In this document: piece by piece, positions 1 to 15,384 of the stretch
Numbering within the stretch: the first letter of the stretch is position 1
Layout: each line of letters starts with the position of its first letter
Source: Pseudobacteriovorax sp.
Lineage (GTDB): Bacteria; Bdellovibrionota_B; Oligoflexia; Oligoflexales; Oligoflexaceae
Reading direction: 5' to 3'
Assembly (NCBI GenBank): GCA_050293845.1
Contig: JBNKNM010000098.1
Span: 1-19,503, forward strand
DNA length: 19,503 bases
Notes under the pieces: model-generated
The model's database searches: none
What the model saw: only the letters and a program-made list of their open reading frames with translations
What the model was told of the DNA's origin: nothing
Program-made: the position numbers and the translations under genes

Positions 1-149
1 TCTTGCGGATACAGGACGTGGAGCTACATCTAAGACGCGGCAAGCGAAAGCAACCCGTGCACGTAGCAGAGAAGCGTTAAAAAAGAAGAGAAAAGCGACG
101 AAAGCCGCTTAGTATTGGAAGCTCGGTCCTTTAGGGCCGAGTAGTTCAC
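1..149 (+). mobile_element. Right end of an IS200/IS605-family insertion sequence (partial; continues left of the window)
   Basis: GAAG (118-121) runs into an imperfect GC-rich hairpin GCTCGGTCC-TTTA-GGGCCGAGT (121-142), followed by AGTTCAC (143-149). This is the typical subterminal hairpin plus TCAC end of tnpB-carrying IS605-type elements, and it directly follows a basic ORF tail. Confidence 0.8.
2..112 (+). CDS. tnpB: C-terminal tail of a probable RNA-guided endonuclease TnpB (partial)
   Basis: Frame +2 is open from the window edge (LADTGRGATSKTRQAKATRARSREALKKKRKATKAA*) with the stop at 110-112, just before the IS right-end hairpin. K/R-rich tails in this position are typical of TnpB. 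No catalytic motif is visible in the window. Confidence 0.65.
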   Translation, partial: LADTGRGATSKTRQAKATRARSREALKKKRKATKAA

Positions 150-220
150 TAATTCACTTGATGAACTTAATGTCATTAGAAAACTTTTCAGTGGTGTTAC
201 TACCCTATATCACTCAAAAA

Positions 221-1132
221 CTAGATTTCAATATTTATAGCTATACCAACTTGTCTTGATTGATACCCATAATAATAGCTGATACCTAAGCCATAACCCG
301 ACATCTTGACTCCACACAGAGCACTTACGCCAAAATCAAAGGACTCCTCACTCTGATTACTGGTGACTCCCGACAATAAGGAAGATTCGCAGTAGAGGTA
401 ACTGTCTTCGTATTTGGGTATAGACCAAACATAACGTGCCCCAAGCTCAGCAAGTAGCAGGGTAAAGTCCCTGCGCTCGGTGCTTGTCAGTAGGGCGTAA
501 TTGCCACCGACAAACCAGCGCCAATTCACACGTTCCGGCAAGAAAAAAATCTTTCTCAACTTTAGATTCAGGTAGTCATGATTAAAGGAACCACCATCGA
601 TGTCAGCATAGCCTGTCTCTAATTGAAAGTCTAAACCACGCGCTGAACGCTTTGCTAGAACTAACTCACGTTTAATCTCGATTTCTGTTTTTACAACTGG
701 AGTTTCTTCTTTATCACCTTCATTGTGGGGTTGCACCACAATGAAAATCCTAGCTTGACGCCCAAACCGAGGGTTTTGACCACCGCCAAATACGTGAACG
801 TTATCGACGATTTTTAAGGATTTTTTGATAGCATCTCCTATCACTTTAGCCCGTCGGTTGGACAACTCAAGGTTATAGTTAGCACTGCCAGAGGTTGTGG
901 CTGTGGCTACTACGTGAACGTAGGTAATATGCTCTGGGTCAATATTGTTTATACATTCTTCCACCCTTTCCTGGCGAAAGACAATACTATTGTGAGGGAA
1001 CAGTATGTTGCAGCTATAAACTAATGTCTTTTGTTGATCTCTATTACCCGTATGGCTATCCTGACTGTGACCTTTAGCAAGACTTAGAGTTGACAAGGAT
1101 AGTACAAATAGTTGAAGTAAAATATTTTTCAT
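221..1132 (-). CDS. Exported protein with N-terminal OmpA-like peptidoglycan-binding domain and C-terminal putative outer-membrane beta-barrel
   Basis: Start is more likely ATG 1132 (MKNILLQLFVLSLSTLSLA signal peptide; ATGA overlap with the upstream stop) than 1150. OmpA-C motifs ILFPHNS and GSANYNLELSNRRAKVI. The C-terminal half has alternating amphipathic, Gly/aromatic-rich strands (LGARYVW, LGISYYYG, VGIAINIEI). Confidence 0.75.
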   Translation of the reverse strand: MKNILLQLFVLSLSTLSLAKGHSQDSHTGNRDQQKTLVYSCNILFPHNSIVFRQERVEECINNIDPEHITYVHVVATATTSGSANYNLELSNRRAKVIGDAIKKSLKIVDNVHVFGGGQNPRFGRQARIFIVVQPHNEGDKEETPVVKTEIEIKRELVLAKRSARGLDFQLETGYADIDGGSFNHDYLNLKLRKIFFLPERVNWRWFVGGNYALLTSTERRDFTLLLAELGARYVWSIPKYEDSYLYCESSLLSGVTSNQSEESFDFGVSALCGVKMSGYGLGISYYYGYQSRQVGIAINIEI

Positions 1133-1404
1133 TTCTGTCTCTTTAAGCAATACTTAATCGTGTTCCCATTTTTGTTGATCAAACCCGATAGTTCCCAACC
1201 TTTTTTACCGTAGTGGTTCAAGGCATCCTCCCAAAGCTCTAAGGTAAGCTTCGGCATGGGAAAGCAGCGATACTCCCACACTGTTAGGTCGAACATACCG
1301 GGGCCCGGAACTGCACTAACATGAGGGGGATCTGGGTAGGGATTTTTCCTTGTTAAACAACCGGGACAGAGTAAGCAAATCAAGCCAAAGAATGTGATTT
1401 TCAT
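1129..1404 (-). CDS. Small DUF4177-like lipoprotein
   Basis: Signal peptide ending in a lipobox-like CPGC(16), a Pro-rich linker, then the WEYRCF...ALNHYGKKGWELSG...YCLKR pattern of DUF4177. Overlaps both neighbours (TAATG, ATGA). Confidence 0.75.
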   Translation of the reverse strand: MKITFFGLICLLCPGCLTRKNPYPDPPHVSAVPGPGMFDLTVWEYRCFPMPKLTLELWEDALNHYGKKGWELSGLINKNGNTIKYCLKRQK

Positions 1405-2084
1405 TAAAAAACCTTTATGACGACCCTACGATTTTTTTTCTGATTTTCCTCGATGGGTTTATCATCTTCGTCCGTATTAGGAGCTATGGGTCGGTAGCTG
1501 CCGTAACCTTGTAACGAAATTCTTTTTCCGGGAAAGCCTGAATTAATAATTTCTTGAACTACTGCTAAAGCCCTCGCCGATGACAGTTCCCAGTTATTCC
1601 TAAACTGATAGCTACGAATGGGAACATTGTCAGTATGTCCTTCCACTACAATTTGAGCATATTCCGGTACAGCATGAAGAAGTGCAATGATTTTTCTAAC
1701 CAAAGGGATATTTTCCTGAATAAGATCAGCTTTTCCTGAAGAAAACAGTAAAGATTCATGGAAAATAAGTTTTACGGCATCATCTGTTAGATCGACGGAT
1801 ACCTTCTTGTCTAGTCCGGCAACTTTAATCTCATTTTTGAGATTTTCAGATAAGGTCACGAGATCGACCTCACCCTCAAGATCTCGACCAGATACCGAGT
1901 TCTTGATCTGCTCAAATTTTATTTGACTTACTTTCGATGCTGACATCAACAGAATGAAGAAAACTAGCAGTAAGCTCATAAGATCGCCGAAACTAGTCAA
2001 CCATCCTTCGTTTGATGAGGAATCATCATCGAAATATGTTTCTTGATCCCCTTCGAAATCAAAACGTTCGGATAAATTATGCAC
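1404..2084 (-). CDS. motB: MotB/PomB-family stator subunit (TM with ion-binding Asp, plug helix, OmpA-like domain)
   Basis: WLTSFGD(34)LMSLLLVFFILL transmembrane motif, plug-like KFEQIKNSV, LLFSSGKADL, VEGHTDNVPI, NWELSSARA, NRRVVIKV. Confidence 0.93.
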   Translation of the reverse strand: MHNLSERFDFEGDQETYFDDDSSSNEGWLTSFGDLMSLLLVFFILLMSASKVSQIKFEQIKNSVSGRDLEGEVDLVTLSENLKNEIKVAGLDKKVSVDLTDDAVKLIFHESLLFSSGKADLIQENIPLVRKIIALLHAVPEYAQIVVEGHTDNVPIRSYQFRNNWELSSARALAVVQEIINSGFPGKRISLQGYGSYRPIAPNTDEDDKPIEENQKKNRRVVIKVF

Positions 2085-2856
2085 CTTTAGTTTCCTTTAC
2101 ATTTCTGGTCGACTCCAGGTAAAAAGCTGGTTTTTTATTCTCAATCATATAAAGCCAGAGTAAAGCCTGCTGAAAATTTTTCAAACGCTCAACCTTTAAG
2201 TTTTCAATTTTAGCGACCAAGGGACTAATCATAACTTGTGAAACAAATATTCCATATAGAGTTGTTAACAAGGCAAGGGACATGTTCGGCCCAATACTGG
2301 AAAAGTCGGTAAGGTTACCCAATAACTTCACTAAGCCCAAGATAGTTCCAAACATTCCAAACGATGGCGCTAAGGTTGTCAGTTTTCTTAAGACATTGAT
2401 TTGTACAGCTAAGTCGGCTTCCATTCGCTTTTTCCGGAGTGAAACGATCATTTGGATGTCTGGCAAGCCCACCCTAGCATCTAGTTTGTCAGCGATCATG
2501 CGCCATGTACTTGTGAATTGGCTATCAGAGCGCAAAGCTTCAGCTAGATTTTTAGGGCCTTTACGATAATACATATCAGTCATATCAGAAAGCTTGCCTT
2601 CTATTTTATGGACTTTCTGTCTAACCTGAGTTGCTGATCTTGTCGTAATATTTTTTACTAGATCGCAGATTACACCAATAGGAGTTGTGCAAAGAGCAAT
2701 GCCAACTACTCCTCCCCAAACAACCAAGAATGAAGGGAAATGCAGGAAATAAGCAACTGGTTTAACATTATCTAAAACGAAAACTCCTAGGAAGAGTGAC
2801 GCTAAAATTGTTCCCATGCCCATCATGGAAAGTAGCATCTGAGCTATACTATTCAT
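2077..2856 (-). CDS. motA: MotA/PomA-family stator subunit
   Basis: 259 aa with a 4-TM layout; HFPSFLVVWGG (TM2) and APSFGMFGTILGLV...IGPNMSLALLTTLYG (TM3-TM4); directly upstream of motB with an 8-nt overlap. Confidence 0.92.
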   Translation of the reverse strand: MNSIAQMLLSMMGMGTILASLFLGVFVLDNVKPVAYFLHFPSFLVVWGGVVGIALCTTPIGVICDLVKNITTRSATQVRQKVHKIEGKLSDMTDMYYRKGPKNLAEALRSDSQFTSTWRMIADKLDARVGLPDIQMIVSLRKKRMEADLAVQINVLRKLTTLAPSFGMFGTILGLVKLLGNLTDFSSIGPNMSLALLTTLYGIFVSQVMISPLVAKIENLKVERLKNFQQALLWLYMIENKKPAFYLESTRNVKETKGA

Positions 2857-4532
2857 GGTTTATATCCTTTCACTGCTTTGTTTCGAAATTTTTTAAGTAA
2901 GGTAATCTGCGCCTCGGCCTTTTCCTTGCCACTCGCCTTGTAGGTGTTTAATAAACTATTAATCAGTGATCTACGGACATTTGTAAGACGGTCAACAATA
3001 GTCCCTTCAAACTCTGGGTAGGACTGGATCAAGGATACAATCTGGCTATTTTCCAGATCTTCAAGAAGTGAACCGACTTGTTCTTCCTTCTCCATAAAAA
3101 GCTCTTTGCAACCAATTTTATAAGCGTCTAGCTCTGCTAGCTGAACTCCTAATTCATTTAGCTTTAAGACTGTGTTTTTAGCTTCAAGATCATTATCCAA
3201 TAGCGATCTAATTCTATTTTCCGGTAATGACAGATCTTTGTTATGAAGTGAAGACTTCTCTAGGTCGTATTTTTCTTTTAGTACTTTTTCACAATCATCC
3301 AATTGAGATTCGCTTACTGCATTTTCATAGAGGCAAGCCATCATTTTGGCTTTATCATCCGAAGTAGCTTGTTTTAGCATTTGTTGCATCTGTACATTAC
3401 TAACATAATCGCCGAGCACGGCAAGGAAAAGCCCTTTATTTTCTGCTGGTATAAGCCTAAAAATCGCTTCTCCAGCAAGCAGCCCAAGAAAGCCGAAACG
3501 TTGACCACTTTGGGCTTTGTAAATTTTCTTGAAATGCTCGACCTCCGTCGCTAAGTCACGAAGAGTCCGGTGGGCATTTTCTTCTGTCATATCGCTAGAA
3601 TCTTCAGACTTCATCAGATCTTCTTCTTCGAATTTTAGATTGCGAGCAATCATCGAACGATTCTTTTCCGTACTAATAGATTTATACAAGGCACAGGCTT
3701 GCTCCTTATTCAAACCTTTGAGAAATTCATTACCAAGTAAGGGGAATTCGCTCATGAATTCTAGTATCACAGCTACATAGCCTGGCACCGCATAGCTTTG
3801 GTCTTCAGAAGAGTCCTTATTGTCATTTTCCGAATGATCAGTATGGTCAGTTTTCAACTTTTTACCTATACGCGCCAAATCTTTTAACATATTTCCGACG
3901 ATAAAAACTACTGCTAGCATCGCTAGAAAGAGTCCTAAGCCTAGCACCAGGCTTGAGAAATTTTCTTCGATGAAGTCGATAAACAAGTTAGATGTCTGCA
4001 CTGTCTTCTCTTGGTTAGGATAGAGATGTTCAACCCGACTCACGACAATTTCCGGAATCTGATCAATACGACTTTGAACTCTTTCCGTGATTAGTTCCTT
4101 AGCCATAGTTTCCATCTCTTGAGAGATATTTTGGCGTAAAAACAACCTGAGTTTCGCTGCCGAGATAATGAGTTTATCCTCGAACTTAAATGTTTCTTCA
4201 CTATCTATATTCTTCTTAGCATCAGCCTCAGGTAGAGTAGGTTTGTTTTGAAAGCCTGGTAAAGCTGGTGGCTCCTCAATTTCCTTAAGTTCGGACTTTT
4301 GCTCTTTAGAACCAACCGAGACAGGGATTTTAGTTCGTTCTACCCGACTGAATACCGAGATCATTAAATTAAAATCTTCTTTTCGCAGAATACTTTCTAA
4401 GTGCGTATTCAGCTCTCTTTCTAAATCAGACTCTAAACTTTTGACTCGGTCTACTTTGTTGGTGAGAGCTACCGAGAAAATAAAAGATAAGAGAATAAGT
4501 ATATACTTAGCCATTCTTCTTTGTTTCTCCAT
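2853..4532 (-). CDS. Membrane protein with FliF-like periplasmic part and FliG-like cytoplasmic part (putative FliF-FliG rotor fusion)
   Basis: N-terminal signal/anchor (alternative start ATG 4514). Periplasmic ESDLERELNTHLESILRKEDFNLMISV...ISAAKLRLFL...AKELI resembles FliF RBM3. TM at ~aa 193-215. RFGFLGLLAGEAIFRLIPAENKGLFLAVLGDYV resembles FliG-M. KELFMEKEEQVGSLLEDLENSQIVSLI...AEAQITLLKKFR resembles FliG-C. ATGA-coupled to motA. The ORF is certain; the homology is manual and remote. Confidence 0.65.
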   Translation of the reverse strand: MEKQRRMAKYILILLSFIFSVALTNKVDRVKSLESDLERELNTHLESILRKEDFNLMISVFSRVERTKIPVSVGSKEQKSELKEIEEPPALPGFQNKPTLPEADAKKNIDSEETFKFEDKLIISAAKLRLFLRQNISQEMETMAKELITERVQSRIDQIPEIVVSRVEHLYPNQEKTVQTSNLFIDFIEENFSSLVLGLGLFLAMLAVVFIVGNMLKDLARIGKKLKTDHTDHSENDNKDSSEDQSYAVPGYVAVILEFMSEFPLLGNEFLKGLNKEQACALYKSISTEKNRSMIARNLKFEEEDLMKSEDSSDMTEENAHRTLRDLATEVEHFKKIYKAQSGQRFGFLGLLAGEAIFRLIPAENKGLFLAVLGDYVSNVQMQQMLKQATSDDKAKMMACLYENAVSESQLDDCEKVLKEKYDLEKSSLHNKDLSLPENRIRSLLDNDLEAKNTVLKLNELGVQLAELDAYKIGCKELFMEKEEQVGSLLEDLENSQIVSLIQSYPEFEGTIVDRLTNVRRSLINSLLNTYKASGKEKAEAQITLLKKFRNKAVKGYKP

Positions 4533-5106
4533 CTTTTGCTTCGACTTTGCCTTGCTTTACAGCTGTCGGTTCTATAGTGGCTTTTTCCTCTGTTTCACTA
4601 TATTTTACTATTAATGTAGCCAGTTCAGGTTGCTTAGGTTTGATTTGTAGGGAATACTTCCAATGTTCAACAGCTAATTCTTTAGCCCCAGTAACAAAAA
4701 GGATCGAACCTTTCATATTGATAAGTTTGGTATTCCACGGATCTATTCTTTGGGCTTTTTCAACTAGCTTCCATGCTTTCTCGAAGTCCTTTTTTTGATA
4801 GGAAAGCTCTGCTGAGTACAGCAATCGATGAAGCTTAGTTTTTTCCGCTAGCGTTAAAGCTCGTTTTAAGATTTTTTTATCTGTTTTGATAAATGCTCTT
4901 TCATGAACCTTGATATTGTAGCTTTCTTCATTTTTCAAAGCTTCTTTCAGCTTAATTTTCTGAATCCCTGCATCAGTCTCAAGAACGATGTAATCACCAT
5001 CTTCATAGACAGATTCTACGGTGACTTCTTTCAAAACTTCTTCACTAGCCGATAATTGGAAGCTCAATAAGGTGGATAGTACTATAATGGACAATACCCG
5101 ATGCAT
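4507..5106 (-). CDS. Exported tetratricopeptide repeat (TPR) protein
   Basis: Signal peptide MHRVLSIIVLSTLLSFQLSA; two TPR-like repeats (AELSYQKKDFEKAWKLVEKAQRIDP; GSILFVTGAKELAVEHWKYSLQIKP); AAGGGA RBS upstream. Confidence 0.85.
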   Translation of the reverse strand: MHRVLSIIVLSTLLSFQLSASEEVLKEVTVESVYEDGDYIVLETDAGIQKIKLKEALKNEESYNIKVHERAFIKTDKKILKRALTLAEKTKLHRLLYSAELSYQKKDFEKAWKLVEKAQRIDPWNTKLINMKGSILFVTGAKELAVEHWKYSLQIKPKQPELATLIVKYSETEEKATIEPTAVKQGKVEAKDGETKKNG

Positions 5107-5117
5107 AACGTTCCCTT

Positions 5118-6179
5118 CTAGAATGTAAAATCTACGCCAATACCAAACATCAAGTGTGCGGGTATAGCCTCGTCACTATCAAAATACCCAGATTCTGGGT
5201 CCTTATCACTACCCCCAACAACACCATCGTTCTTAGGCTCAGACATGAAAACGTGCACTCTTTCTGTTATACCCAGGTAAAGAGCACTCCCGAACCTAAA
5301 CTTCATACCTGCTTGCAGCTGAATTTGTGTATCGCCATTAAAATCGGTCACACCAAATTCCAATGGGTAGATCAATGTCACATATTTCCAATGCTTACCC
5401 GAAATTTCGTTGTAGTTCAAATCGGTATAGAAGCCAAAGGTGGTTTGGCTCGGCAACCCATTCAATGCCCCCATATAAGTTGCGCTAACACCGACATCAC
5501 CTAGGCCCACTAAGCGCTGGCCCATGGTCAAGCGGCCTCCCATAGGGGCGGGCAAGTCACTTTCATGAAAAATCATAGACTGAATACTTATACCCATAAC
5601 AAATCCGGACCGCGCTGGCCCTTGATTCAAGATTTTGTACTCTCTCGAGTACACCAACTTTTGGTCTTCTATAGAATACGCTCCCACCTGCATGATGATT
5701 TCATCGTCAGAACTATCAAGGTGAACGGTGAGATAGCCATCCACACCAAGCCTTTTGAGGGCATCGAGCATCTCAGAGTTATCAACAAAGCCTTTGCGAA
5801 TATAAATATCGCGGCCGTCAGTCAAAGCCCGTGGCTTAAAGCAGCCAACGCACCTCATGAAGGTCAGGGTTTTTTTATTTTTTGAATCTTTCTTTTCAAA
5901 AATTGTGCTTTGTTCGATGCGATTGACCAGGTACTCCCTAAGATGACTGGGAAAACTCTTACTCTGTGAGTAGCGAGCCAACGTCACTTTCGGAAGCTTT
6001 GCCGCAATGGCTCCTATATCAGCTGTGAACAGGGATGTCAATTCGGCTATGGCCGCATAACTTTTCGACCTAGATATCTTACTAAGGTCATTATCACTTG
6101 CTGCGATCACAGTGATTGGGCTAGCTAGTAGTAGGCTTAAAAAAGCAGGAAATAATATCTGCAGAATTTTGGCTTTCAA
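5118..6179 (-). CDS. Putative outer-membrane protein: periplasmic TolB-N/CsgG/FlgO-like alpha/beta domain plus C-terminal beta-barrel
   Basis: TTG start with GGAG 7 nt upstream; signal peptide; CxxC (CVGC); LGVDGYLTVHL...VGAYSIEDQKLVYS pattern; amphipathic strands ending in a BAM-type beta-signal MFGIGVDFTF. Confidence 0.6.
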   Translation of the reverse strand: MKAKILQILFPAFLSLLLASPITVIAASDNDLSKISRSKSYAAIAELTSLFTADIGAIAAKLPKVTLARYSQSKSFPSHLREYLVNRIEQSTIFEKKDSKNKKTLTFMRCVGCFKPRALTDGRDIYIRKGFVDNSEMLDALKRLGVDGYLTVHLDSSDDEIIMQVGAYSIEDQKLVYSREYKILNQGPARSGFVMGISIQSMIFHESDLPAPMGGRLTMGQRLVGLGDVGVSATYMGALNGLPSQTTFGFYTDLNYNEISGKHWKYVTLIYPLEFGVTDFNGDTQIQLQAGMKFRFGSALYLGITERVHVFMSEPKNDGVVGGSDKDPESGYFDSDEAIPAHLMFGIGVDFTF

Positions 6180-6305
6180 TTTTCATCTCCACATTAACCA
6201 TGTCAGTCTCAACTTGGAACCACATCTGCCACAGATATTGCAACAGCCATTCCAATTAGTCGAAAAAAAGTTCCCGACAGACTTGTTACAAATGCCATTA
6301 AATAA

Positions 6306-6322
6306 TAACTAGATACTAGTTA
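6306..6322. promoter_or_regulatory. Perfect 7-bp inverted repeat, candidate regulator-binding site in the divergent intergenic region
   Basis: TAACTAG-ATA-CTAGTTA, ~125 bp upstream of the minus-strand operon and ~190 bp upstream of the sigma54 motif. Confidence 0.3.
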
Positions 6323-6513
6323 ATCTAAGCAGGGGTGACGGTCCAAGGCTGAAGAATTAGAGCAAAGGCATTAACAAATTTTTTTCAGATGTCTAACGCA
6401 ATATAACCACTTGGTAAGAGTCTTGACATTGGGCCTCCCATGATTCTGAAATTTGGATTCATAGGTATACGATAAGGACCACAGAGAGGGCAGCCTCCTG
6501 GCCCAGAGGACTT

Positions 6514-6530
6514 TCGGCATGAAATTTGCT
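6514..6530 (+). promoter_or_regulatory. Sigma54 (RpoN)-type -24/-12 promoter
   Basis: TCGGCATGAAATTTGCT: GG (6516-17)-N10-GC (6528-29), close to the TGGCAC-N5-TTGCW consensus, ~50 nt upstream of ATG 6582. Confidence 0.65.
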
Positions 6531-6581
6531 TCAGATGTGCTAGCCGAACTGCTGCATCCTCACTGCTGAAATGGAAGCTAC

Positions 6582-7601
6582 ATGAAACAAATAATTATTT
6601 TCGCTTTGCTAGTAAACCTGATTGCCTGCAAGGAGAAATCGTCTCCTCCTGATCCAACTTTTCTCATTCAAAAAGATTCTGCAAAGATCGACGACGATAT
6701 TGAGTCTATGGAGCTATTAGGGCGGAGCGTATATTTATCTAGCAAATCCAGTTCCGTAAGTTTTACATTAGAAGGCTCTTTGAATCTCTCTAAAAAAGAA
6801 ACGATCAACCGTCAGATCCTGCCTATCCTTTCTCAAAATGGTATCAACTATCTTCTTTTAGAAGACAGGGAGTCTCTCCTAGATCAAACTCCCTTGGAAG
6901 ACGACCTTCCTGAGGAAGGGGAAGATGTTCAACTCAGCCTTGCAGCACCTATAATTCTTTTTAACCCAGAAAAAAATCCTATTGGAGCTGCTACCCAAGA
7001 TAATAATACGGGCTTAATTTATACCTACCTAAGGGGTATGGGTCTGTTGGCCACTGCCCCTGAACAGACTGACTTCACTGCCTTTATTGATACTCAGCTC
7101 ATTGACTCAGCTGTCAGCCCGCGAAAAATGATCGTTCATCGCTCGAAGCTCATTCTTCTGGATTTTGATTTTGGAATATGGGTTTTTAGTTTATCTGATC
7201 CTTTAACACCACGCTTGGAACAAAGTATATCAATTAGTGATTATAATTCGGATATCGTTGCTGTAAATTCTTCTACTATTGCAGTTTCCACTGCCAGAGA
7301 CGGAATAAAAATTTTCGCGATTAACAATGGTTCTTACCGTCATACTCGAACAATCACCACTCATGGAGCTGTCACCAAGATGGTCCCGTTCAATGATCTA
7401 CTCTATGTTAGCGAAAAAATTTCTCAACGTGAGAGCTATTTATCGATTTTAAATGAAAATGATTCCGTGACACGACCTATCTATGTTACCGACTATGAAA
7501 TTGAAAACTTTAGTATCGGTTCAAGTGGTGATTTCCTGGTAAGTTACGACTCTCTAGGAGAACTTCGAATCTACGATACCTTTATTCAGGACTTGCGATA
7601 A
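6582..7601 (+). CDS. Lipoprotein with beta-propeller/LVIVD-like repeats
   Basis: Lipobox LIAC(16); blade-like units LILLDFDFGIWVFSLSDPLTPRL and IAVSTARDGIKIFAINN. Confidence 0.65.
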   Translation: MKQIIIFALLVNLIACKEKSSPPDPTFLIQKDSAKIDDDIESMELLGRSVYLSSKSSSVSFTLEGSLNLSKKETINRQILPILSQNGINYLLLEDRESLLDQTPLEDDLPEEGEDVQLSLAAPIILFNPEKNPIGAATQDNNTGLIYTYLRGMGLLATAPEQTDFTAFIDTQLIDSAVSPRKMIVHRSKLILLDFDFGIWVFSLSDPLTPRLEQSISISDYNSDIVAVNSSTIAVSTARDGIKIFAINNGSYRHTRTITTHGAVTKMVPFNDLLYVSEKISQRESYLSILNENDSVTRPIYVTDYEIENFSIGSSGDFLVSYDSLGELRIYDTFIQDLR

Positions 7602-9340
7602 TGAATTTCACTAGGAATATTTATTTCATTCTTTTGTCTCTTCAACTTTTTGCTTGTTCAAAGTATGAAGGTGAGGACTATGTAGGTTCCTGCCCTGGTC
7701 CAGACACAAGCCTATCAGGTGCAGACTTAAAAGATAAAGATCTTAGTGCTTGCGATTTCAGCTATAGGAACTTAGCAGGTATAAAGTTCAGTGATACCAA
7801 TCTTGATGGCGCAAATTTCTCTCATGCTATTTTAGATGGTTCAACTTTCACTCGGGTTCATGGTGAAGGGGTTCTCTTTACAGGGGCAAAACTGGATTCA
7901 GTTACCTTCGACGAGGCTCACTTCATCAATAGTGATTTTTCTAGCAGCACCCTCCACGACAGTCACTGGTTAAACACTACTTTGGAATCGGTCGACCTAC
8001 GCCGTAGTCGTGGCCATCAAGTTCTATTTGAAAATTCGGTCCTTTATAGGACTCAACTAAGTGATACAATGCTGGCCTTTTCTGAAGTATTAGGCACGAC
8101 AATTCAGGATTCTATTATTAGTCACAGTAGCGAGCGCACTGGATTTAGCAATGTGAAATTTTCAAATTCTCAAATCCACCAAAACGACTGGACAAGTAGT
8201 CGTTTAAGTTCAGTTATTTTTACTGACAGCACACTAATGATGGGAAATATTTTTGACCAAGTTAATATTGATAGCAGCCAGTTTATAAACGTCAGTGTAG
8301 CTGACATTAAATTTAGCAATGCTAGGATCAGCAATTCTACTATCACTGACTCAACCTTCTCCACAGATGCTGATAATAATCCGGGCCCTCCGTGGCACAC
8401 CAACTATGAAGGTGACTTTAACTTCGATGCTCCCGAGATCAATGTCGAAAAAATAAATTTTGTTTCCTCCAATCTTGATCGTTTAGCAATAAACAATAGC
8501 CATCTTGCAATGGTCGTTTTCGATTCGAGTACAGGGCAGATTTTAGTTGATAACTCCAACTTGGAATCATCAAAATTCTTACAGTCGACTTTTACCGAAT
8601 CAAGCTTCAGTAATCAAAGCAATCTTAGCAAAGCAGAATTCAAAGAATCAAACCTCAATGGAAGCAGCTTTGTTGGTAGTTTTCTTAACTCAAGTATATT
8701 TTTTGGAGGTCAACTGCAGGACGTTAGGTTTTCTGGAGTTGAAGGTAATTCAGCTAGCTTCTCCGAAGTGAAAATGAACGGAGTCAATTTTCATACCAGT
8801 GCTTTTCAAGCGGCCCAGTTTAACGCAATCGTAGATTTTGACAGCCAATTTTATGAAACTACTGTCACAAACTCTAAGTGGGAGAATATCGGCGATGCGG
8901 TTATTAACTTTTTCTCGTCAGATATGTCCGAAAGTTTTGTAAAAAACTCCAACATTAGTTTTCACGCTATCTCTGACTCAAAGATCGATGGTATTCAGAG
9001 TGAAAATTTTGCATTTACCAGTGTTGTCCCTTGGGAAGCGAATCCTTTTAAAACAATGGTCGAAGGTGCTAGTTTCAGCGGATCTTATATCCATGGCCCC
9101 CTAGGTGACTACTTTTATGAGTGGATATTTCAGCGTAAGCAACCATGTACCAGTCGCGCAGTTGTTACACCATCACGAATGCACACCCATCCCGATACGC
9201 CAGCACCTTTTGGGTATGGGACTGTCGTAATGACACCTGAAATGATTAAGAATATGGCCGGCATGCGACTCCATGGCTACTGCGGAGTAACCTATCAATG
9301 CCGGTTGTCTGGTGCAAACTTAATCTGTGAGGGCACCTGA
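7601..9340 (+). CDS. Pentapeptide-repeat lipoprotein
   Basis: Lipobox LFAC(19); long 5-residue periodicity (SLSGA DLKDK DLSAC DFSYR NLAGI KFSDT NLDGA NFSHA ILDGS) over ~430 aa; Cys/Pro-containing C-terminal cap. Confidence 0.92.
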   Translation: MNFTRNIYFILLSLQLFACSKYEGEDYVGSCPGPDTSLSGADLKDKDLSACDFSYRNLAGIKFSDTNLDGANFSHAILDGSTFTRVHGEGVLFTGAKLDSVTFDEAHFINSDFSSSTLHDSHWLNTTLESVDLRRSRGHQVLFENSVLYRTQLSDTMLAFSEVLGTTIQDSIISHSSERTGFSNVKFSNSQIHQNDWTSSRLSSVIFTDSTLMMGNIFDQVNIDSSQFINVSVADIKFSNARISNSTITDSTFSTDADNNPGPPWHTNYEGDFNFDAPEINVEKINFVSSNLDRLAINNSHLAMVVFDSSTGQILVDNSNLESSKFLQSTFTESSFSNQSNLSKAEFKESNLNGSSFVGSFLNSSIFFGGQLQDVRFSGVEGNSASFSEVKMNGVNFHTSAFQAAQFNAIVDFDSQFYETTVTNSKWENIGDAVINFFSSDMSESFVKNSNISFHAISDSKIDGIQSENFAFTSVVPWEANPFKTMVEGASFSGSYIHGPLGDYFYEWIFQRKQPCTSRAVVTPSRMHTHPDTPAPFGYGTVVMTPEMIKNMAGMRLHGYCGVTYQCRLSGANLICEGT

Positions 9341-9343
9341 TTT

Positions 9344-10048
9344 ATGAAATTTTTCCACCCTGTATATATTGTAGCGATATTACTAGAGCTAGTTTCTGCA
9401 AGTGCTTACGGTTCAGATTACTGCTCGAAGCCGCAGAGCAATTCCTATGAATTCACGCGTCAAGTCATTATCAAAAAATTGGCTATACAAGGTTTAAGCT
9501 GCCCTGAACAAGAGCATCACCTAAAGTCTATTAAGACCATCGATCTCTCTTCAAGAGGCATTGAGAATGTCAAGCCTTTGCTAGCCTTAGAAAATATTGA
9601 GATCATCAAGCTCAAAGATAATAACATCAAAAGCGCAGAATCTTTGCTATACCTAAATAATATTCGTGAGTTAGACTTATCTCAAAATAAAATTGAAAGC
9701 TTTAATGTGACGCGCGAGACGCCAAGTCTTGAGGTTCTCCGCATAGATTTCTCTCACGAAAAAGTCAATATCAGAGGCTTGGGTAAGCTAAGCAATATCA
9801 AGACACTATCTCTTAAGAAAGCTGGAATTCGATCAGTGAGCGCTTTCTTTGCACTGCCTGAGTCGGCGACAACTCTAGATCTTTCTTGGAACTCACTTAA
9901 CAACGCAAATGATTTGATCCAGCTGTTATCGAGAATGAATGTAAGCTTTTTTCCAAGTAAAACACTATGTATGGCACGATTTCGAAATCGTTCCCACACT
10001 ATCGCACATATTTGCGAACCATATCTAGCTCAAGAGGAAGGTAGATGA
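9344..10048 (+). CDS. Exported leucine-rich repeat protein (internalin-like LRRs)
   Basis: Signal peptide ending ASAYG; LRRs IKTIDLSSRGI, IEIIKLKDNNI, IRELDLSQNKI, IKTLSLKKAGI, TTLDLSWNSL; Cys-containing N- and C-caps. Confidence 0.88.
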   Translation: MKFFHPVYIVAILLELVSASAYGSDYCSKPQSNSYEFTRQVIIKKLAIQGLSCPEQEHHLKSIKTIDLSSRGIENVKPLLALENIEIIKLKDNNIKSAESLLYLNNIRELDLSQNKIESFNVTRETPSLEVLRIDFSHEKVNIRGLGKLSNIKTLSLKKAGIRSVSAFFALPESATTLDLSWNSLNNANDLIQLLSRMNVSFFPSKTLCMARFRNRSHTIAHICEPYLAQEEGR

Positions 10049-10968
10049 AATTACTCTTAATTATGATCAGCATCAGTTATTTAGCTGCTTGTGAAAAATT
10101 AGACGATCAAAACAATTCAAATGTTGGTGATCTAGCCCATCACAATCAGAAAGAAATTGAGGAGCTTAATCGTTCTGTCAATGCTGAAAAACTGAATAGT
10201 CGTGATCTATCCCAAAACCTAGAGGGAGACGTACGCGCTCTCCAGGACTGGCGCAATATGGTTCACGAAACGGCAATCAGCTCTGAAGCCTTCAATATAG
10301 CTGTAGAGAAACAATTCCAACCCCTATACGATTGCCTGAATAATCTCGATAACAGTAGTTGCCTGGTTATACAAGAAATCAAATCGTGCCTTAGTTCCCC
10401 CAATCCGCAGAATTCTGACTTTTGCGCGGCAATCGATGCTCTCTTTGCAAAAAATCTCAATCAAGATCAAAAAATTGATTTCTTAGAAACATGCCTAAGG
10501 AAAAATCCCCAGTTTCAGTTCTCACTAGCCGCACCTTGGACAATTGATTTTGACGAAACAATAGCCGGCTGTACTGGCCTTCAGTTTATTGCCGAGTACA
10601 GCCGCCAACTCGCAGAAGCCTTAGATAAAAAGATAGATGATAGCGTAGAAGCCTTAGATAAAAAGATAGATGATAGGCATCAACAACAAGAGCAGCACAT
10701 CAAAAACTTGGAACAGCGAATAGCTGAACTAGAAAGTACTATTGAAGGTTTTGCTGATATAGCTACTTTATTGGATAGACTAAGCAACCTAGAAGGGCAA
10801 CGGACTCACGAAATTCAGGTCATAGAAAAACTTTCTGCCGACTCGAAACAGCTCTTTTTAGAGCTTAAAAGGGAAGGGAATATGGTCAATATTGATGATA
10901 AGCAAATTAATGACTGCATGTTTAACAACCTCCCCAGTAACAGTGAACTCCCCAATTGTTTGGATTAA
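10045..10968 (+). CDS. Coiled-coil, Cys-containing lipoprotein of unknown function
   Basis: Lipobox LAAC(16); coiled-coil segments (IKNLEQRIAELESTIE); a Cys-rich central region; ATGA overlap with the LRR gene. Confidence 0.75.
   Translation: MKLLLIMISISYLAACEKLDDQNNSNVGDLAHHNQKEIEELNRSVNAEKLNSRDLSQNLEGDVRALQDWRNMVHETAISSEAFNIAVEKQFQPLYDCLNNLDNSSCLVIQEIKSCLSSPNPQNSDFCAAIDALFAKNLNQDQKIDFLETCLRKNPQFQFSLAAPWTIDFDETIAGCTGLQFIAEYSRQLAEALDKKIDDSVEALDKKIDDRHQQQEQHIKNLEQRIAELESTIEGFADIATLLDRLSNLEGQRTHEIQVIEKLSADSKQLFLELKREGNMVNIDDKQINDCMFNNLPSNSELPNCLD
10614..10676 (+). repeat. In-frame tandem duplication, 30-bp exact unit with 33-bp period
   Basis: AGAAGCCTTAGATAAAAAGATAGATGATAG at 10614-10643 and 10647-10676, encoding EALDKKIDD twice. 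Confidence 0.95.
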
Positions 10969-10973
10969 ACACT

Positions 10974-13900
10974 ATGCGTCACTACCCCATTTTTCTTCAG
11001 ATTCTGCTACTACTGGCTTGTAATGCAGGTAACGTTGATAGCACTAGTGTGCAAGAAAATAGCAGCATCTCAGCAAACAGCAGTACCAGCAGATCTGCTA
11101 CAGTCTCCCCGAATCTCGGTACACGTTCGGACACGCCCATTTGCGATGACAACAACTGTGAACCACCAATTCCAGATGGTACCGGCGACGATCCTCCACG
11201 CGAATGGCCTACTGGTACCATTATTATACCAGGCACGCCGCCAATCGGTGAGTTGCCAACTCTACCAGGTACTCTCACTTGTACACTACCAGCGCCGACC
11301 TATCACTTCGGCGGCTGTGACACTAGTAGCAGTATCCCCTGGTACCGAAAAAAAATTGATGGCGACTTGATGTTAGAGCAGTATGAAGCTCACAGGCAGA
11401 CCCAAAACTTAAATCAACGGAAAGTCGAAGTAATCGTTCTCGACTCCGGATACGAGTACTACATCCAGGATTCTAGTACCCTAGTTAAAAGTCCATATGC
11501 TGATGCCATTCCCGAAGTTGATTTTGCGATGGGTCAAATTTATCGCGATGGGCACGGTCAAGTGAGTACTAAAATAGAACTTTATGCGGACAGGGTGGAA
11601 CAGGCCGCCAGGGCTGACTTTGTCAATGGTACCTTAAGAAATGGTTACGCTGATACCACTGACCTACACGGAACCCATGTCAATGCCACTGTCGCTGGTT
11701 GCTCTCAAAATGGGGTTGCTAAAAATATTATCCTAAGTTCTTTCCGCTTTGAGCTAGGCAATGCTTGTAACCCCCAGCAAGATGACCTTGTTGCCGCTAT
11801 CGATAAGGTTTGTGAACGAGCCAGTAGAACCCAAGATGACTTTAAAATCATAAACGTGAGCATAGGCTCACTAGCCGATGAAGTCGGTTATGACGAACGT
11901 GGTTTACCCAACAAGCCCTTTCGAGATAAATTGCCAAAATGGCGGGAAAAGGGCTGCTTGGTTGTCCAGGCCTCTGGTAATGATTCTTATATCCGACGCT
12001 ATAATATGTCGAATCAGCTCTATAAATCCATGCGTGAAAAGCATTTAGAAGAAGCTACTGTATTTAAACGCTTGCTCGCACCATTCTACTTGCCCAGAGT
12101 CGCGGATAACCTTTTTCCAACCGAGAGCGTTATCGAATCAAAAAGAGAGGTAGAACTGAAAAATGCCTTACTCCGGGTCGGAGCTACTGGATCAATTGGG
12201 TACTATTCATCCTATTCTTCTTTGGGAGAAATTAAAGCACCGGGCACCAAACTACAAATATTTGATAGGGAAATCTCTGGAACAAGCTTCGCTGCCCCTG
12301 TGGTCACATCGCTTTTGGCAGAAATCGCTGCCACTGTCAGAACATTCAATTCCCAATATTGGAGTGTTCTTGACCCTAGTGAAAAAATTGATCTGTCTAT
12401 CGACATTCTTAACCGTTCCCAGCTTGCAGGGGTACCCAATGGCTTGCGTGCCACTTCTATGGCGCGTGCCGTTGCCGAAAACCAGAACCTCCTTGGTCAG
12501 GAATGGAGTAGCTCTGAAATGCAATCTCAGCTCTGTCCTGTACGATTAAAAGAAGAGACTCAAAGCTGTCAAAGCTTGCTAGAGGCAAACAGTACAACCC
12601 CACTTAGAACGAGTGAGGCCGTGGATCAATGTCGCAAAACCGTTCGCAGAAGTCTTACTCTATGCCACCCGAGTGATGAAGAGCAAACTATGGCTCACAT
12701 CAGACGAACAAAACTGATGATCGATTTTCACTACAACGAGCTAGCCGATCGAGCCGCAATGCATCGCCTAGAGGCGGGTTTTGAAACCTTAGCCAACTCC
12801 CCATTAGCCCTGAACTTCATTCAGACTCAGGTCGATGAACTTATACCTTCCCTATTACAATTAACGAGCCTTGTCGGTTTGTTTTCCGCTGACTATAGCT
12901 CGGGAGAATGGCTCAACATAAATATTTCTTTGATGAGACACTTAGCCTTAGCTAGTGACTCGCAGCAAGTAAGAGATTTATTTTCGAAGTTCACTCACTA
13001 TGTCATCACCTCAGAAATATTCGACTACGAGATGCAAAAAAGGAGTGGTAGAGGCTCAGAAGAAAAGCTAGAGCTGTTAGCTGAAATCCTTAAAGTGGGG
13101 ATCAGTAAGTTCGGGCTGGATTTTATGACACAGACACTCGATGATAGCTATTCCACTGTGTACCAGAGTCACAGTTCCTGGCTAGAAGATCATAACTCAT
13201 ACCATTTCGTTCCCATACTTCGCCTCTTAGATAAGTTACGTGGAACTGAGTTATCCAGTAAAGCTATGGAGCTTGAAAGTAATATCATGGCAACTCTTGA
13301 TAGTCTGAGCTCGGTAATTAATCCCGTCAGATACTGGCGTCCAATCGCCATGTACAAGCCTGGAATTTCATACCTCCGCGACAATGATTGGATTCCCGGA
13401 AAAATCATCAGCGACGATATGTTCCATTTAGATTTAAGTTACCTTAAATCATCAGCCCAGCGTTATGTTAGAGCTCATGGCCCCAGTACAGTTGGTCTTA
13501 TCAATCTTGCAGCTGTCGCCAGTAGTAACCAGTGGAACCCCCAAGGTGTCTTTACAACCAAAGACTTTAAAACTGCCAACAGAGTCTATATCAACGGAGT
13601 CAATGACAATCATTTTTTTGAATTACTGGGGCAACAAGAAGATGGTGAAATCGCAGCGCTTGATTACATCCGCGACAGACTGATACTTGTGGATATAAAT
13701 ACAGCTCCTTCTAAGGCTAATTGCCTCGAATGGGATCATCCTAATATCTTGATGAACGCCGACCTAGATGTCGATCTTATTGATTTTTGGGTACCATGTG
13801 ACTATCAAGCCCAGAGGCTTTCCAGCTATGAAATTATGATGACCAAGCCTCGCCATTTCCGTCAGTGCTTATCACCCGTTCATGCTGACAAATACAATCT

Positions 13901-15302
13901 CGACCCGAATCCCAATGGTGTTGATCAGGGTATTTATAATTGCGAACTGCAGCAAAGCAGCGAACAATTATCAAAAACAATACTCGATACCATCGACGAG
14001 TCTAATCACCAACTATACTCCCAGGAAATCCAAGAGCTATCGGTAACGAACCTCTTAAACTTCAACGAGCTATCGAGGAAACAGACATTAGACTACTTGG
14101 ACTTAAGAAGCTTTGATGACCTTGGATTTCTCGTGCTGGCATTGGAAGCCCTCAACACCGATCCAGCTGGTCCTGAGTTTCAAGCCAAAGAAGATTTTAT
14201 GGAACTATACGTGGATATATTAGCCCACGAAGATTATCGGAACGATAGGTTTATATTTTTTAAAGATGCGGTTCAAGTCTTCTTGAACCATTTCGAAGGA
14301 CTTAATAATACAAGGACTTCCTTTGAAAATAAGCTATTTTTGCGGAACTCCTTTTTTCAGACAATAATCAATGCCCAGCGTACAGCTCTAGAGCAAGCTG
14401 ATGCCAGCGATGTCATCAACCTTGGAAAAGCTTTCCGACTTTTGCGGAACTCGACCCTCTGCCAGGTTTACGGCACCGCAACTTTTAACCATGCCTGGGA
14501 AACTTTCCCTCTCTCGGCTAGCAAACGTGACTCAGTCTATCTTCCTCTACTACTTCACCAAGGTGTTACCAATGGGACGGGAAACTACCGATATGCCTAT
14601 GAAGAGGCACGGCTTTTCGCTAATAGTTGCTGGGGTAGTTCTACCCATACTAATGATGATGATGGACTATCGTGCTCAGCTGACAGTAAAGATCTAGACA
14701 TCATGTTTGTTATCGATCGCTCTGGTTCTATGGGTCCTCATGCTGATAAAGTCAAATTTTGGACCAAATTTCTCGTAGCTAGATTGAAGGATAAAGGCTG
14801 TTATCCCCGCGTCGGTGCCTTGACTTATGAGGCTGCCGTCGATGAAAAACGTCAGTTACCTAGCACTGACTTGGATGAATTCAGCAAGTTTATGGATGAG
14901 ATTGAAATCGCTGGCGGTATCGAGGTGGGACTAGCCGCTGTCAAGGAAGCATTAACAATACTAAATCCCAGCGATCAGATAGGTACGGATCATCGTAAGT
15001 TTATTGTGCTGATCTCTGATGAACTCAGCTATAACCTCAATCCTTACTCAGCTGACATTTTTCCTTTAGTCAACTTTTGGATCGATCAACGAGAAAGATT
15101 TAAAAACACCTATTTCACTCACGCGGTGATCGATGGTTCCCCTTTGCAGCAAGCAACGCAAATCGGAAGTCTCTTAAATGAAGCGCTTAGTGAGGACCAC
15201 GGTGGACGTTCCATTCATTACTCACTTGAGTTTCCCATGGATTTTGATAACTTTGTTTTTGATTTTACAAACTTCATTATAGCAGAGTTAAATGCCTCAT
15301 AG
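10974..15302 (+). CDS. Large S8 (subtilisin-family) serine protease lipoprotein with C-terminal von Willebrand factor A domain
   Basis: Likely start ATG 10974 (MRHYPIFLQILLLLAC lipobox). Catalytic motifs VIVLDSG (Asp 11442), HGTHV (His 11667), SGND (oxyanion Asn), SGTSFAAP (Ser 12285). vWA MIDAS FVIDRSGSM (14715) and LISDE. Confidence 0.92.
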   Translation: MRHYPIFLQILLLLACNAGNVDSTSVQENSSISANSSTSRSATVSPNLGTRSDTPICDDNNCEPPIPDGTGDDPPREWPTGTIIIPGTPPIGELPTLPGTLTCTLPAPTYHFGGCDTSSSIPWYRKKIDGDLMLEQYEAHRQTQNLNQRKVEVIVLDSGYEYYIQDSSTLVKSPYADAIPEVDFAMGQIYRDGHGQVSTKIELYADRVEQAARADFVNGTLRNGYADTTDLHGTHVNATVAGCSQNGVAKNIILSSFRFELGNACNPQQDDLVAAIDKVCERASRTQDDFKIINVSIGSLADEVGYDERGLPNKPFRDKLPKWREKGCLVVQASGNDSYIRRYNMSNQLYKSMREKHLEEATVFKRLLAPFYLPRVADNLFPTESVIESKREVELKNALLRVGATGSIGYYSSYSSLGEIKAPGTKLQIFDREISGTSFAAPVVTSLLAEIAATVRTFNSQYWSVLDPSEKIDLSIDILNRSQLAGVPNGLRATSMARAVAENQNLLGQEWSSSEMQSQLCPVRLKEETQSCQSLLEANSTTPLRTSEAVDQCRKTVRRSLTLCHPSDEEQTMAHIRRTKLMIDFHYNELADRAAMHRLEAGFETLANSPLALNFIQTQVDELIPSLLQLTSLVGLFSADYSSGEWLNINISLMRHLALASDSQQVRDLFSKFTHYVITSEIFDYEMQKRSGRGSEEKLELLAEILKVGISKFGLDFMTQTLDDSYSTVYQSHSSWLEDHNSYHFVPILRLLDKLRGTELSSKAMELESNIMATLDSLSSVINPVRYWRPIAMYKPGISYLRDNDWIPGKIISDDMFHLDLSYLKSSAQRYVRAHGPSTVGLINLAAVASSNQWNPQGVFTTKDFKTANRVYINGVNDNHFFELLGQQEDGEIAALDYIRDRLILVDINTAPSKANCLEWDHPNILMNADLDVDLIDFWVPCDYQAQRLSSYEIMMTKPRHFRQCLSPVHADKYNLDPNPNGVDQGIYNCELQQSSEQLSKTILDTIDESNHQLYSQEIQELSVTNLLNFNELSRKQTLDYLDLRSFDDLGFLVLALEALNTDPAGPEFQAKEDFMELYVDILAHEDYRNDRFIFFKDAVQVFLNHFEGLNNTRTSFENKLFLRNSFFQTIINAQRTALEQADASDVINLGKAFRLLRNSTLCQVYGTATFNHAWETFPLSASKRDSVYLPLLLHQGVTNGTGNYRYAYEEARLFANSCWGSSTHTNDDDGLSCSADSKDLDIMFVIDRSGSMGPHADKVKFWTKFLVARLKDKGCYPRVGALTYEAAVDEKRQLPSTDLDEFSKFMDEIEIAGGIEVGLAAVKEALTILNPSDQIGTDHRKFIVLISDELSYNLNPYSADIFPLVNFWIDQRERFKNTYFTHAVIDGSPLQQATQIGSLLNEALSEDHGGRSIHYSLEFPMDFDNFVFDFTNFIIAELNAS

Positions 15303-15384
15303 CACTGCCTGCAAGGCTTGCTCATTCACAAATGCGAATTTGAAAGGAATCGGCATATAGGCAAGGGGGCGATTGAACTTTGCC

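Follow-up and report, generated by a model that had tools for sequence, protein, structure and literature searches.

The 19,503 nucleotides analysed here (positions 1 to 19,503 of the forward strand of contig JBNKNM010000098.1, assembly GCA_050293845.1; hereafter the window, meaning this whole stretch of DNA) come from a Pseudobacteriovorax sp. of the Oligoflexia and contain a gene that looks like a natural joining of the ring-building end of FliF to the torque-receiving protein FliG. The genes for a MotA/MotB stator follow directly downstream, and we consider it probable that the gene product, P0001, is the single-chain rotor subunit of a non-flagellar, MotAB-driven machine of the cell envelope. 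The family appears to be undescribed: full-text searching of the literature, which did not reach subscription journals and bioRxiv supplements, found no description of it. A first-pass annotation made from the DNA letters had already read this gene as a FliF-FliG rotor. Our work supports this interpretation, while rotation, the absence of a switch complex and a single direction of turning stay conjectural. The features of the gene are the following:

2853..4532, minus strand: fusion protein P0001, 559 amino acids (aa), consisting of a FliF part (ring-building motif 3, RBM3), a transmembrane (TM) helix and a FliG part; from sequence, family profile and structure model
4461..4532, minus strand: N-terminal hydrophobic segment, aa 1-24; from reading of the sequence, with the hydrophobic stretch at aa 10-23
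4017..4460, minus strand: RBM3-like domain, aa 25-172, alpha-beta-beta-alpha-beta; from the model and structural matches
4191..4322, minus strand: predicted hairpin-tip loop, aa 71-114, with L91-P92-G93-F94; from low predicted local distance difference test (pLDDT) values and conservation
3888..3956, minus strand: single TM helix, aa 193-215, followed by a basic cytoplasmic stretch; hydrophobic run, then rich in Lys and Arg, model helix 192-229
3507..3809, minus strand: helix-Pro-helix and small helical domain, aa 242-342; from the model, placed like the FliF C-terminal helices and FliG_N
3264..3500, minus strand: homolog of the FliG middle domain without the EHPQR motif, aa 345-423; from the profile, Pfam and 4fq0_D
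2859..3119, minus strand: homolog of the FliG C-terminal (torque) domain, aa 472-558; from the profile, Pfam and 1qc7_B

The gene lies exactly where the first-pass annotation had placed it. On the minus strand it is read as one uninterrupted open reading frame (ORF) of 559 codons; on the plus strand the same interval contains many stop codons and the frame is closed. A HMMER scan of 1.84 billion representative proteins returned 31 proteins at E<=0.001, 16 of them at <=1e-10, each 464-642 aa long and most aligning end to end; one of the 31 is the cluster of P0001 itself and another a paralog encoded in the same genome. Across the 32 family members aligned in A1, P92 is invariant (32/32) and G93, F94, L274, F346, G347, N495 and R520 are nearly so. 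A second profile, A3, covers the N-terminal half. Judged from these searches the family is rare but real, and it exceeds chance because full-length relatives were found among the 1.84 billion proteins searched, because its profile finds FliG (E 7.7e-26), and because the gene order around it is conserved.

The cytoplasmic part is by profile specifically FliG, with the middle and the C-terminal domain, as had been proposed. The family profile aligned to the FliG middle and C-terminal domains of Thermotoga maritima (1lkv) at the E-value just given, over profile positions 342-551, and the top 14 PDB sequences by E-value were all FliG, whereas MgtE reached only 0.21; the similarity therefore goes well beyond MgtE_N or generic helical repeats. 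In hhalign, 14 canonical FliG proteins of relatives matched with a probability of 98.7% and E 4.4e-16 (348-555 versus FliG 114-324). Pfam recognised FliG_C (PF01706) in 24 of the 32 members (best 3.5e-15), FliG_M in 12 and the related MgtE_N in 13. An AlphaFold model computed on A1 (mean pLDDT 83.9) points in the same direction: the middle domain superimposes on 4fq0_D (Z 8.6, root mean square deviation (rmsd) 2.4 A, 78 residues), aa 472-558 superimpose on 1qc7_B (Z 13.4, rmsd 1.6 A, 87 residues), and the C-terminal domain matches FliG bound to MotAB (8ucs_H, Z 12.7). The FliG-like helical region extends to residue 554 in the model. Of the 32 members, 29 retain R520, which aligns to the torque-helix arginine of canonical FliG, and 30 retain N495. 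We presume that the E. coli numbering of the torque-helix positions can be carried over to P0001 through alignment with the FliG proteins of T. maritima and of this genome. Unlike FliG, a free cytoplasmic protein of about 330 aa, the FliG part of P0001 is preceded in the same chain by a putative signal peptide, one periplasmic domain and the TM helix. The motif that binds FliM had been called degenerate, and this is borne out: the EHPQ of the genome's own FliG aligns with ENKG in P0001, and at positions 364-367 of A1 the glutamate is present in 12 of the 32 members and His, Pro and Gln are never the commonest residue.

Between the TM helix and the FliG middle domain, the first-pass annotation had seen the helix-Pro-helix of the FliF C-terminus running into a FliG_N-like domain. 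The structural side of this claim stands: the model contains the helices 242-262 and 264-272, broken at the conserved P264, followed by 276-285, 289-298, 303-311 and 317-342, with pLDDT values mostly of 76-94 (block means 63-94). Model residues 275-559 align to Salmonella FliG 6-322 (8vib_G) with Z 10.8 over 264 residues at an rmsd of 13.2 A, and Foldseek placed a full-length FliF model first, aligned over 280 columns. The sequence searches gave the claim no support, as PF14842 (FliG_N) matched none of the 32 members at E 0.01 and the hhalign alignment to FliG begins only at 348. The structure alignment thus fits a likeness of aa 242-342 to the FliF C-terminus and FliG_N, and this is the weaker part of the FliG assignment.

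The N-terminal half is predicted to be periplasmic. The segment at aa 1-24, previously listed as a signal or anchor, is probably a Sec signal peptide or, alternatively, a first membrane anchor; in the paralog P0003, an Ala-x-Ala-type site occurs at the corresponding place. The model then has helix 28-48 and strand 54-70 at the place proposed for the first half of an RBM3-like domain, a low-confidence loop at 73-112 with the sequence PPALPGF at the place of the expected proline-rich insert between two beta strands, and strand 115-133, helix 138-156 and strand 161-167 as the second half. The core of this domain is modelled at pLDDT 86-96, its two unusually long strands form a hairpin, and the insertion sits at the position of the FliF collar. 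The FliF ring structures are more recent than the AlphaFold2 weights, and the model is therefore unlikely to copy them. Foldseek found the S-ring and the RBM3/collar chains of FliF with probabilities of 0.94-1.00 and TM-scores on the target of about 0.37-0.45. With VIA-align, 15 FliF entries covering Salmonella FliF 228-438 or Vibrio FliF 254-453 reached Z 9.5-10.9, at an rmsd of 2.5-3.5 A over 96-109 residues in 14 of them and of 6.9 A over 148 residues for 8zds_A; 7cg7_A, for example, aligned over 105 residues with Z 10.9 and at an rmsd of 3.5 A (model 25-172 versus FliF 233-438). A search of 48,161 representative PDB chains that was independent of Foldseek also placed the RBM3/S-ring part of FliF at the top (Z 10.6, 10.4 and 9.7), in agreement with an RBM fold.

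The periplasmic part comprises only about 150 residues, and therefore it has no room for RBM1 or RBM2. In this genome, the Pfam family that covers these two motifs (YscJ_FliF, PF01514) was found on the canonical FliF on contig C169 only, and the claim that both are absent from the fusion protein holds for its single periplasmic domain. The loop at the predicted tip of the hairpin is modelled with pLDDT values below 50 at 73-86 and 98-112, and it carries the most conserved motif of the family, LPGF (L in 28, P in 32, G in 31 and F in 31 of the 32 members). In the proteins of a second subtype that were compared (loci L027 and L055-L059), LPY[YF][SA] takes the place of LPGF and is followed by a conserved DEWD stretch; this difference may reflect different periplasmic partners of the subtypes. 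The single TM helix had been placed at about aa 193-215, and the model helix indeed begins at 192.

An oligomer model of the periplasmic domain, which the first-pass annotation had proposed as a check, points to self-association. Four copies of residues 24-178, co-folded with the family alignment, are predicted to chain head to tail with an ipSAE of 0.46 (0.49, 0.46 and 0.43 in the individual runs), as compared to 0.00 for the best of three controls. The runs had at least 72% of the contacts in common, with a partner pLDDT of at least 69. Two distinct faces of each copy are used: the helices 33-50 and 143-157 pack on the strands 55-63, 127-131 and 163-172 of the next subunit. Such an open-ended packing, as predicted, is what a ring or a polymer requires; that the fusion protein forms a large ring is a prediction.

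The strongest support for a rotor is the presence of motA and motB directly downstream of the fusion gene, which the first-pass annotation had not mentioned. The fusion gene is the third of seven genes on the minus strand whose ends overlap or abut, in the order OM353, TPR, fusion, MotA, MotB, S91 lipoprotein and OmpA-like protein (OM, outer membrane; TPR, tetratricopeptide repeat):

5118..6179, minus strand: OM353, secreted protein of 353 aa, first gene; signal-peptide-like N-terminus, ends in an aromatic residue, likely outer membrane partner
4507..5106, minus strand: TPR protein of 199 aa with a signal-peptide-like N-terminus; overlaps the start of the fusion gene by 26 nt
2077..2856, minus strand: stator A subunit of the MotA/PomA type, 259 aa; PF01618 at 9.7e-18, start overlaps the fusion stop by 4 nt
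1404..2084, minus strand: stator B subunit of the MotB type, 226 aa, with plug, channel Asp D34 and OmpA-like peptidoglycan-binding domain; MotB_plug 1.6e-13, OmpA 3.6e-18
1129..1404, minus strand: S91, small protein of 91 aa with a lipoprotein-like N-terminus; Cys-containing signal sequence
221..1150, minus strand: OmpA-like secreted protein of 309 aa (OmpA309), last gene; OmpA 4.8e-4, below the cut-off

The operon is translationally coupled: from the TPR gene onward the overlaps are 26, 4, 8, 1 and 22 nt, and a gap of 11 nt separates OM353 from the TPR gene. A scan of the window for promoters and terminators showed no enrichment (8 promoter-like sites versus 14.1 expected, 6 terminator-like sites versus 5.3); one terminator-like site, at 110-93 on the minus strand, is located behind the last gene of the operon. 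MotA matched the NCBIfam models for PomA (1.3e-23) and MotP (5.3e-23) below their equivalog cut-offs and those for TolQ (5.3e-6) and ExbB (0.0079) far more weakly; since its score was 83.6 bits as compared to an equivalog cut-off of 341 bits, MotAB is a divergent member of the flagellar type. Residues 15-221 of MotA align to flagellar MotA/PomA of the PDB (1.5e-16 to 2.3e-13), including the long cytoplasmic domain between TM2 and TM3. The channel Asp of MotB is present in 12 of the 13 homologs encoded in such operons, and the ORF call of the thirteenth begins past this position. A Zorya defence system was considered and rejected: only MotB resembles a Zorya protein (ZorB, PADLOC 1.3e-22), while MotA has no match to ZorA and the other operon proteins have none to any component.

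For the partner proteins, the matches are fainter. OM353 has no Pfam or NCBIfam match. Its neighbours in a protein atlas, unnamed clusters of which some carry LpoB/CsgG/TolB_N or OMP_b-brl and which include Balneolota, Myxococcota and Bdellovibrionota, are a lead only. The TPR protein matches TPR_2 (0.0027) and TPR_CcmH_CycH (0.001) below the Pfam cut-offs and the TPR region of NCBIfam PrsT at 3.1e-8, and S91 has weak matches to NCBIfam Sp36_fam (2.7e-6, below the cut-off) and DUF4177 (0.035).

The gene order is conserved. We used the seven proteins of the window as queries on 14 related loci (loci, genomes and contigs are numbered with L, G and C, respectively). The order from OM353 to S91 recurs in L053 and L051 (genomes G002 and G036), and in G002 all seven genes are present in order, with a fusion protein ortholog that is 33% identical. 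Homologs of OM353 adjoin the fusion gene in five other loci, those of the TPR protein are located directly upstream of it in L051, L052, L053 and L061 and nearby on the opposite strand in L054, those of S91 come after either MotB or the fusion gene in L026, L051, L052 and L053 and accompany operons of the first subtype, and L053 has a homolog of OmpA309 in the corresponding position, L052 one in the vicinity. The order is partial in L054 and L026 (G007 and contig C198 of the present genome). In L061 (G032:C101), the order is kept up to MotB and the ORF after MotB has no match to S91; the fusion gene of this locus (2625-4206) is broken by in-frame stops into two ORFs, of 215 and 192 aa, which is either a pseudogene or an assembly error, and OM353, TPR, MotA and MotB look intact. 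A second subtype has the order (TPR)-MotA-MotB-fusion-(small outer membrane barrel) and was found in L027, L055, L056, L057 and L058; its carriers are four relatives and, with contig C8, the present genome. Named records with relatives of this subtype are metagenome-assembled genomes labelled Pseudobacteriovorax, Oligoflexus, Oligoflexia, Oligoflexales and Pseudobdellovibrionaceae.

Several observations speak against a FliF-FliG rotor and have to be set against this evidence. First, P0001 by itself has no match in Pfam, NCBIfam or the PDB sequences (phmmer against the PDB gave a chance match only, and a word-index protein search with P0001 returned nothing but P0001), so that every family assignment runs via the profile of its relatives. 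Second, the likeness of the periplasmic domain to FliF is seen in the fold but not in the profiles. Pfam YscJ_FliF_C (PF08345) was found on canonical FliF alone, once in each of 36 out of 41 genomes and never at a fusion locus, the A3 profile retrieved no FliF from the PDB sequences, and hhalign of the family against 30 FliF proteins of relatives was not significant (P 0.04, probability about 1%); that the two best local alignments are collinear with the structural superposition is merely suggestive. Moreover, in the search of the 48,161 chains generic folds of the same topology come close to FliF (CzrB 9.0, MamB 8.6, PrgK 8.2, SpoIIIAG 7.0), which leaves a modest Z margin of about 1.5. Because the fold margin is modest and sequence methods are blind to the relationship, we call the domain RBM3-like, by its modelled fold and its position in the chain, and not a proven homolog of FliF; of the likeness to FliF RBM3 that had been proposed, the fold thus stands, as the best among all chains searched, and the profile comparison does not. 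Third, the charges of the torque interface are not all retained. In E. coli FliG, the torque-helix residues that face MotA are R281, D288 and D289 (accessible text of PMC12505986). At positions 527-528, which align to the canonical acidic pair, the family has hydrophobic or basic residues (L/M/K-type). Likewise, R98 and E106 of MotA align to an Arg and a Glu of PomA, and this charge pair had to be rejected as a feature of the family since both positions vary in 12 other MotA proteins from related operons. Fourth, with a predicted TM-score of 0.44, the model does not predict the arrangement between the domains. Fifth, the ipSAE mark had been calibrated with two copies and other alignments and not with four copies; it was passed by 20 of the 30 proteins that were solved as pairs and by 1 of the 23 solved as single chains. 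In addition, the self-association score may owe something to likeness with the solved FliF rings, and we therefore regard self-association as support and not as proof. Finally, in L052 (G030:C415, 7824-11787) the order is OM353-TPR-fusion-S91 and MotAB does not adjoin; the OmpA309 homolog of this locus is located a few kb away on the other strand. The stator of L052 may be encoded elsewhere or shared.

If P0001 is a rotor subunit, its parts suggest how the machine might work. The N-terminal half would be exported by the Sec system, and the RBM3-like domains would pack helix face to sheet face into a ring at the inner membrane, from which the long beta-hairpins would project upward as in the FliF collar. 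Each subunit would cross the membrane with its one TM helix, and the fused FliG-like N, M and C domains would form the cytoplasmic face of the ring. Stators of the MotA5B2 type from the adjoining genes, held on the peptidoglycan by MotB, would let ions flow via the channel with the MotB Asp and push the FliG_C torque domain, so that the ring turns or is pushed against the wall. The output would leave on the periplasmic side, with the LPGF loop as a candidate contact for the TPR and outer membrane proteins. As RBM1 and RBM2 are lacking, the ring would not house a type III export gate, and since a rod, a hook and a FliM-binding motif are missing as well, a C-ring switch is not expected; unidirectional rotation is a reasonable guess from the missing motif. 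More tentatively, as an idea that we hold with somewhat less than even confidence, the machine could be an autonomous, secretion-free rotary motor that transmits torque via the collar and the LPGF loop to the TPR and outer membrane partners and thereby drives gliding, the movement of surface proteins or envelope remodelling.

That the acidic torque-helix positions and the charged residues of MotA are not conserved would also suit a force transducer that does not rotate: a small oligomer or static ring in which FliG_C serves as a dock for MotAB and which works on its partners in the manner of Tol-Pal or ExbBD-TonB. Envelope proteins are numerous in the operon (one TPR protein, two proteins predicted to be in the outer membrane and one lipoprotein), which resembles Tol-Pal. 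We nevertheless regard this explanation as unlikely: the stator belongs to the flagellar MotA/PomA type, its best matches being PomA and MotP, with TolQ and ExbB far behind, the entire FliG M and C region is kept and is much closer to FliG than to MgtE, and the periplasmic ring-building motif is predicted to chain head to tail.

The distribution of the family bears on the idea that the fusion protein is no machine of its own but an addition to the usual flagellar motor, as an accessory ring or a stator scaffold like the extra periplasmic rings and TPR scaffolds known from high-torque motors. This genome encodes one canonical FliF, two canonical FliG and one FliM on other contigs, as well as 16 loci of the MotA/ExbB family, and TPR and outer membrane lipoproteins are typical scaffold parts in elaborated motors. 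However, at least three paralogous fusion operons of two gene-order subtypes (contigs C98, C198 and C8) stand against the one FliF, and no flagellar genes were found in the window, nor in any of the 14 related loci that were searched with its proteins. The A3 profile, which canonical FliG cannot match, occurs in 22 of 131 genomes of the phylum, in 16 of 83 genomes of good quality, and in 8 of the 21 genomes of the window's own family, all 21 of which have FliF; a second FliG-bearing ring would, moreover, rival the C ring for stators. An accessory role in the flagellum is thus quite improbable. It is harder still to believe that the gene is a decaying or functionless paralog whose flagellar-like domains are relics without a mechanism: P0001 deviates from the consensus around 470-477 (A, C and K as compared to K470 in 24, F475 in 18 and Asp or Glu at 476 in 26 of the 32 members) and the copy in the relative G032 is interrupted by stop codons, but the frame of P0001 is fully open, as it is in 30 relatives of matching length, LPGF, F346-G347, N495 and R520 are retained, the ortholog in G002 keeps the order of the seven genes at the identity given above, and the operon is translationally coupled.

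Further genes with FliG-like regions were seen in the course of this survey. On contig C18 of G000 (L004/L029), an ORF of 780 aa matches FliG_C with 50.5 bits and has an architecture distinct from the fusion; in many relatives ORFs of 780-890 aa match the fusion profile at about 246-552, forming a second family, of long proteins with a FliG-like M/C region. On contig C80 of G000 (L028:1-1200, minus strand), an ORF of 400 aa that is cut by the contig end matches FliG_C with 27 bits at 312-382. It has a TPR protein upstream, a MotA/MotB pair about 4 kb away on the other strand and no A3 match, and it may be a further, shorter variant.

To our knowledge, FliF, FliG and MotAB have been described only as parts of the flagellum, the MS ring of which also houses the export gate. 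The proposed rotor shares with this flagellar core (FliF, FliG and MotAB/PomAB) the modelled RBM3-like fold, with its insertion where FliF has the collar (Z 9.5-10.9), the order of RBM3-like domain, TM helix and putative FliG-binding region, the FliG M and C domains as recognised by profile, and a MotA/MotB pair with plug, Asp and OmpA domain. It differs in being one polypeptide and not two, in lacking RBM1/RBM2 and EHPQR, and in having TPR and outer membrane partners in place of nearby rod, hook, export and switch genes; the Pfam models for FliF fail to recognise it. In the flagellum, RBM2 forms the inner ring that holds the export complex (PMC11739650, accessible text).

Fusions of FliF and FliG have been obtained in the laboratory and also exist in nature. 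Engineered fusions of the proteins from Salmonella and Vibrio alginolyticus (8z4d/8z4g) link FliF end to end with FliG and assemble rings (accessible parts of PMC11481574 and PMC6079021). The 945-residue Vibrio chain matches our family profile at 2.7e-15, and its S-ring part superimposes on our model with Z 9.5-9.7. These laboratory constructs contain full-length FliF (RBM1-3, two TM helices) and function inside a complete flagellum, whereas the gene described here is natural, has no counterpart to the first half of FliF and belongs to an operon with its own stator. The natural FliF-FliG fusion of the Chlamydiaceae (Bergeron 2016, PMC4768692) is likewise a FliF-like membrane protein with a FliG-like cytosolic tail and without a complete flagellum. 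According to the accessible part of that paper, it has about 330 aa, an SctJ-like RBM2 and one RBM-like domain, no SpoIIIAG-like (RBM3) domain, two TM helices, and a tail that resembles only FliG_M. As far as this description goes, the protein from Pseudobacteriovorax is the converse, with RBM3 only and the full FliG M and C region, and it has an adjoining MotAB, which that part of PMC4768692 does not report for Chlamydia.

Other membrane machines resemble one half of the operon or the other. SpoIIIAG and SctJ/SctD have the same RBM topology, and SpoIIIAG also has a beta insertion; they score below FliF (5wc3_A Z 7.0, PrgK 8.2) and have neither a FliG fusion nor a stator. Tol-Pal, ExbBD-TonB, AglRQS-Glt, GldLM and ZorAB combine a motor of the MotAB family with periplasmic and outer membrane proteins in an operon, bring ion-motive energy to the outer envelope and may work alike; we know of none among them with a FliG-type rotor protein or an RBM ring, and the MotA described here is nearest to PomA and MotP, not to TolQ and ExbB. 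Non-flagellar 5:2 ion motors that energise the envelope are treated in PMC9389320 and PMC12505986 (accessible text of both). In the accessible text of the latter, a survey of MotAB and its non-flagellar relatives, the only mention of FliG is in the introduction, where it is the rotor partner in the flagellum, and no non-flagellar FliG homolog is linked to these motors.

If the proposed rotor is confirmed, a rotor-stator pair would exist naturally apart from a type III export apparatus, and one flagellated Oligoflexia genome would operate three or more of these motors, belonging to two subtypes, in addition to its flagellum. New here is that three or more copies, in two gene-order subtypes, share one genome with a normal set of flagellar genes. 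A natural single polypeptide that keeps the parts for torque reception and ring building, and has neither the export-housing part nor the switch-binding motif, would bear on the question whether the flagellar motor and the export system arose separately. It would be a minimal rotor of few genes, a simple system for the study of torque generation and of the control of ring size, and a candidate new route by which ion-motive energy reaches the outer envelope.

Outside the operon, the window contains pentapeptide-repeat, leucine-rich-repeat, subtilase/VWA and Wadjet genes, and no flagellar gene. Five genes for secreted-looking proteins (6582-15302, plus strand) diverge from the motor operon: an unknown protein of 339 aa, a pentapeptide-repeat protein of 579 aa, a leucine-rich-repeat protein of 234 aa, a coiled-coil protein of 307 aa and a subtilase (S8) of 1448 aa with a C-terminal VWA domain. 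They are followed on the minus strand (15385-19487) by a type III Wadjet pair, consisting of a JetD of 335 aa (PADLOC JetD3, 1.9e-40) and a JetC-like SMC protein of at least 1032 aa that is cut by the end of the window (JetC3, 1.3e-40).

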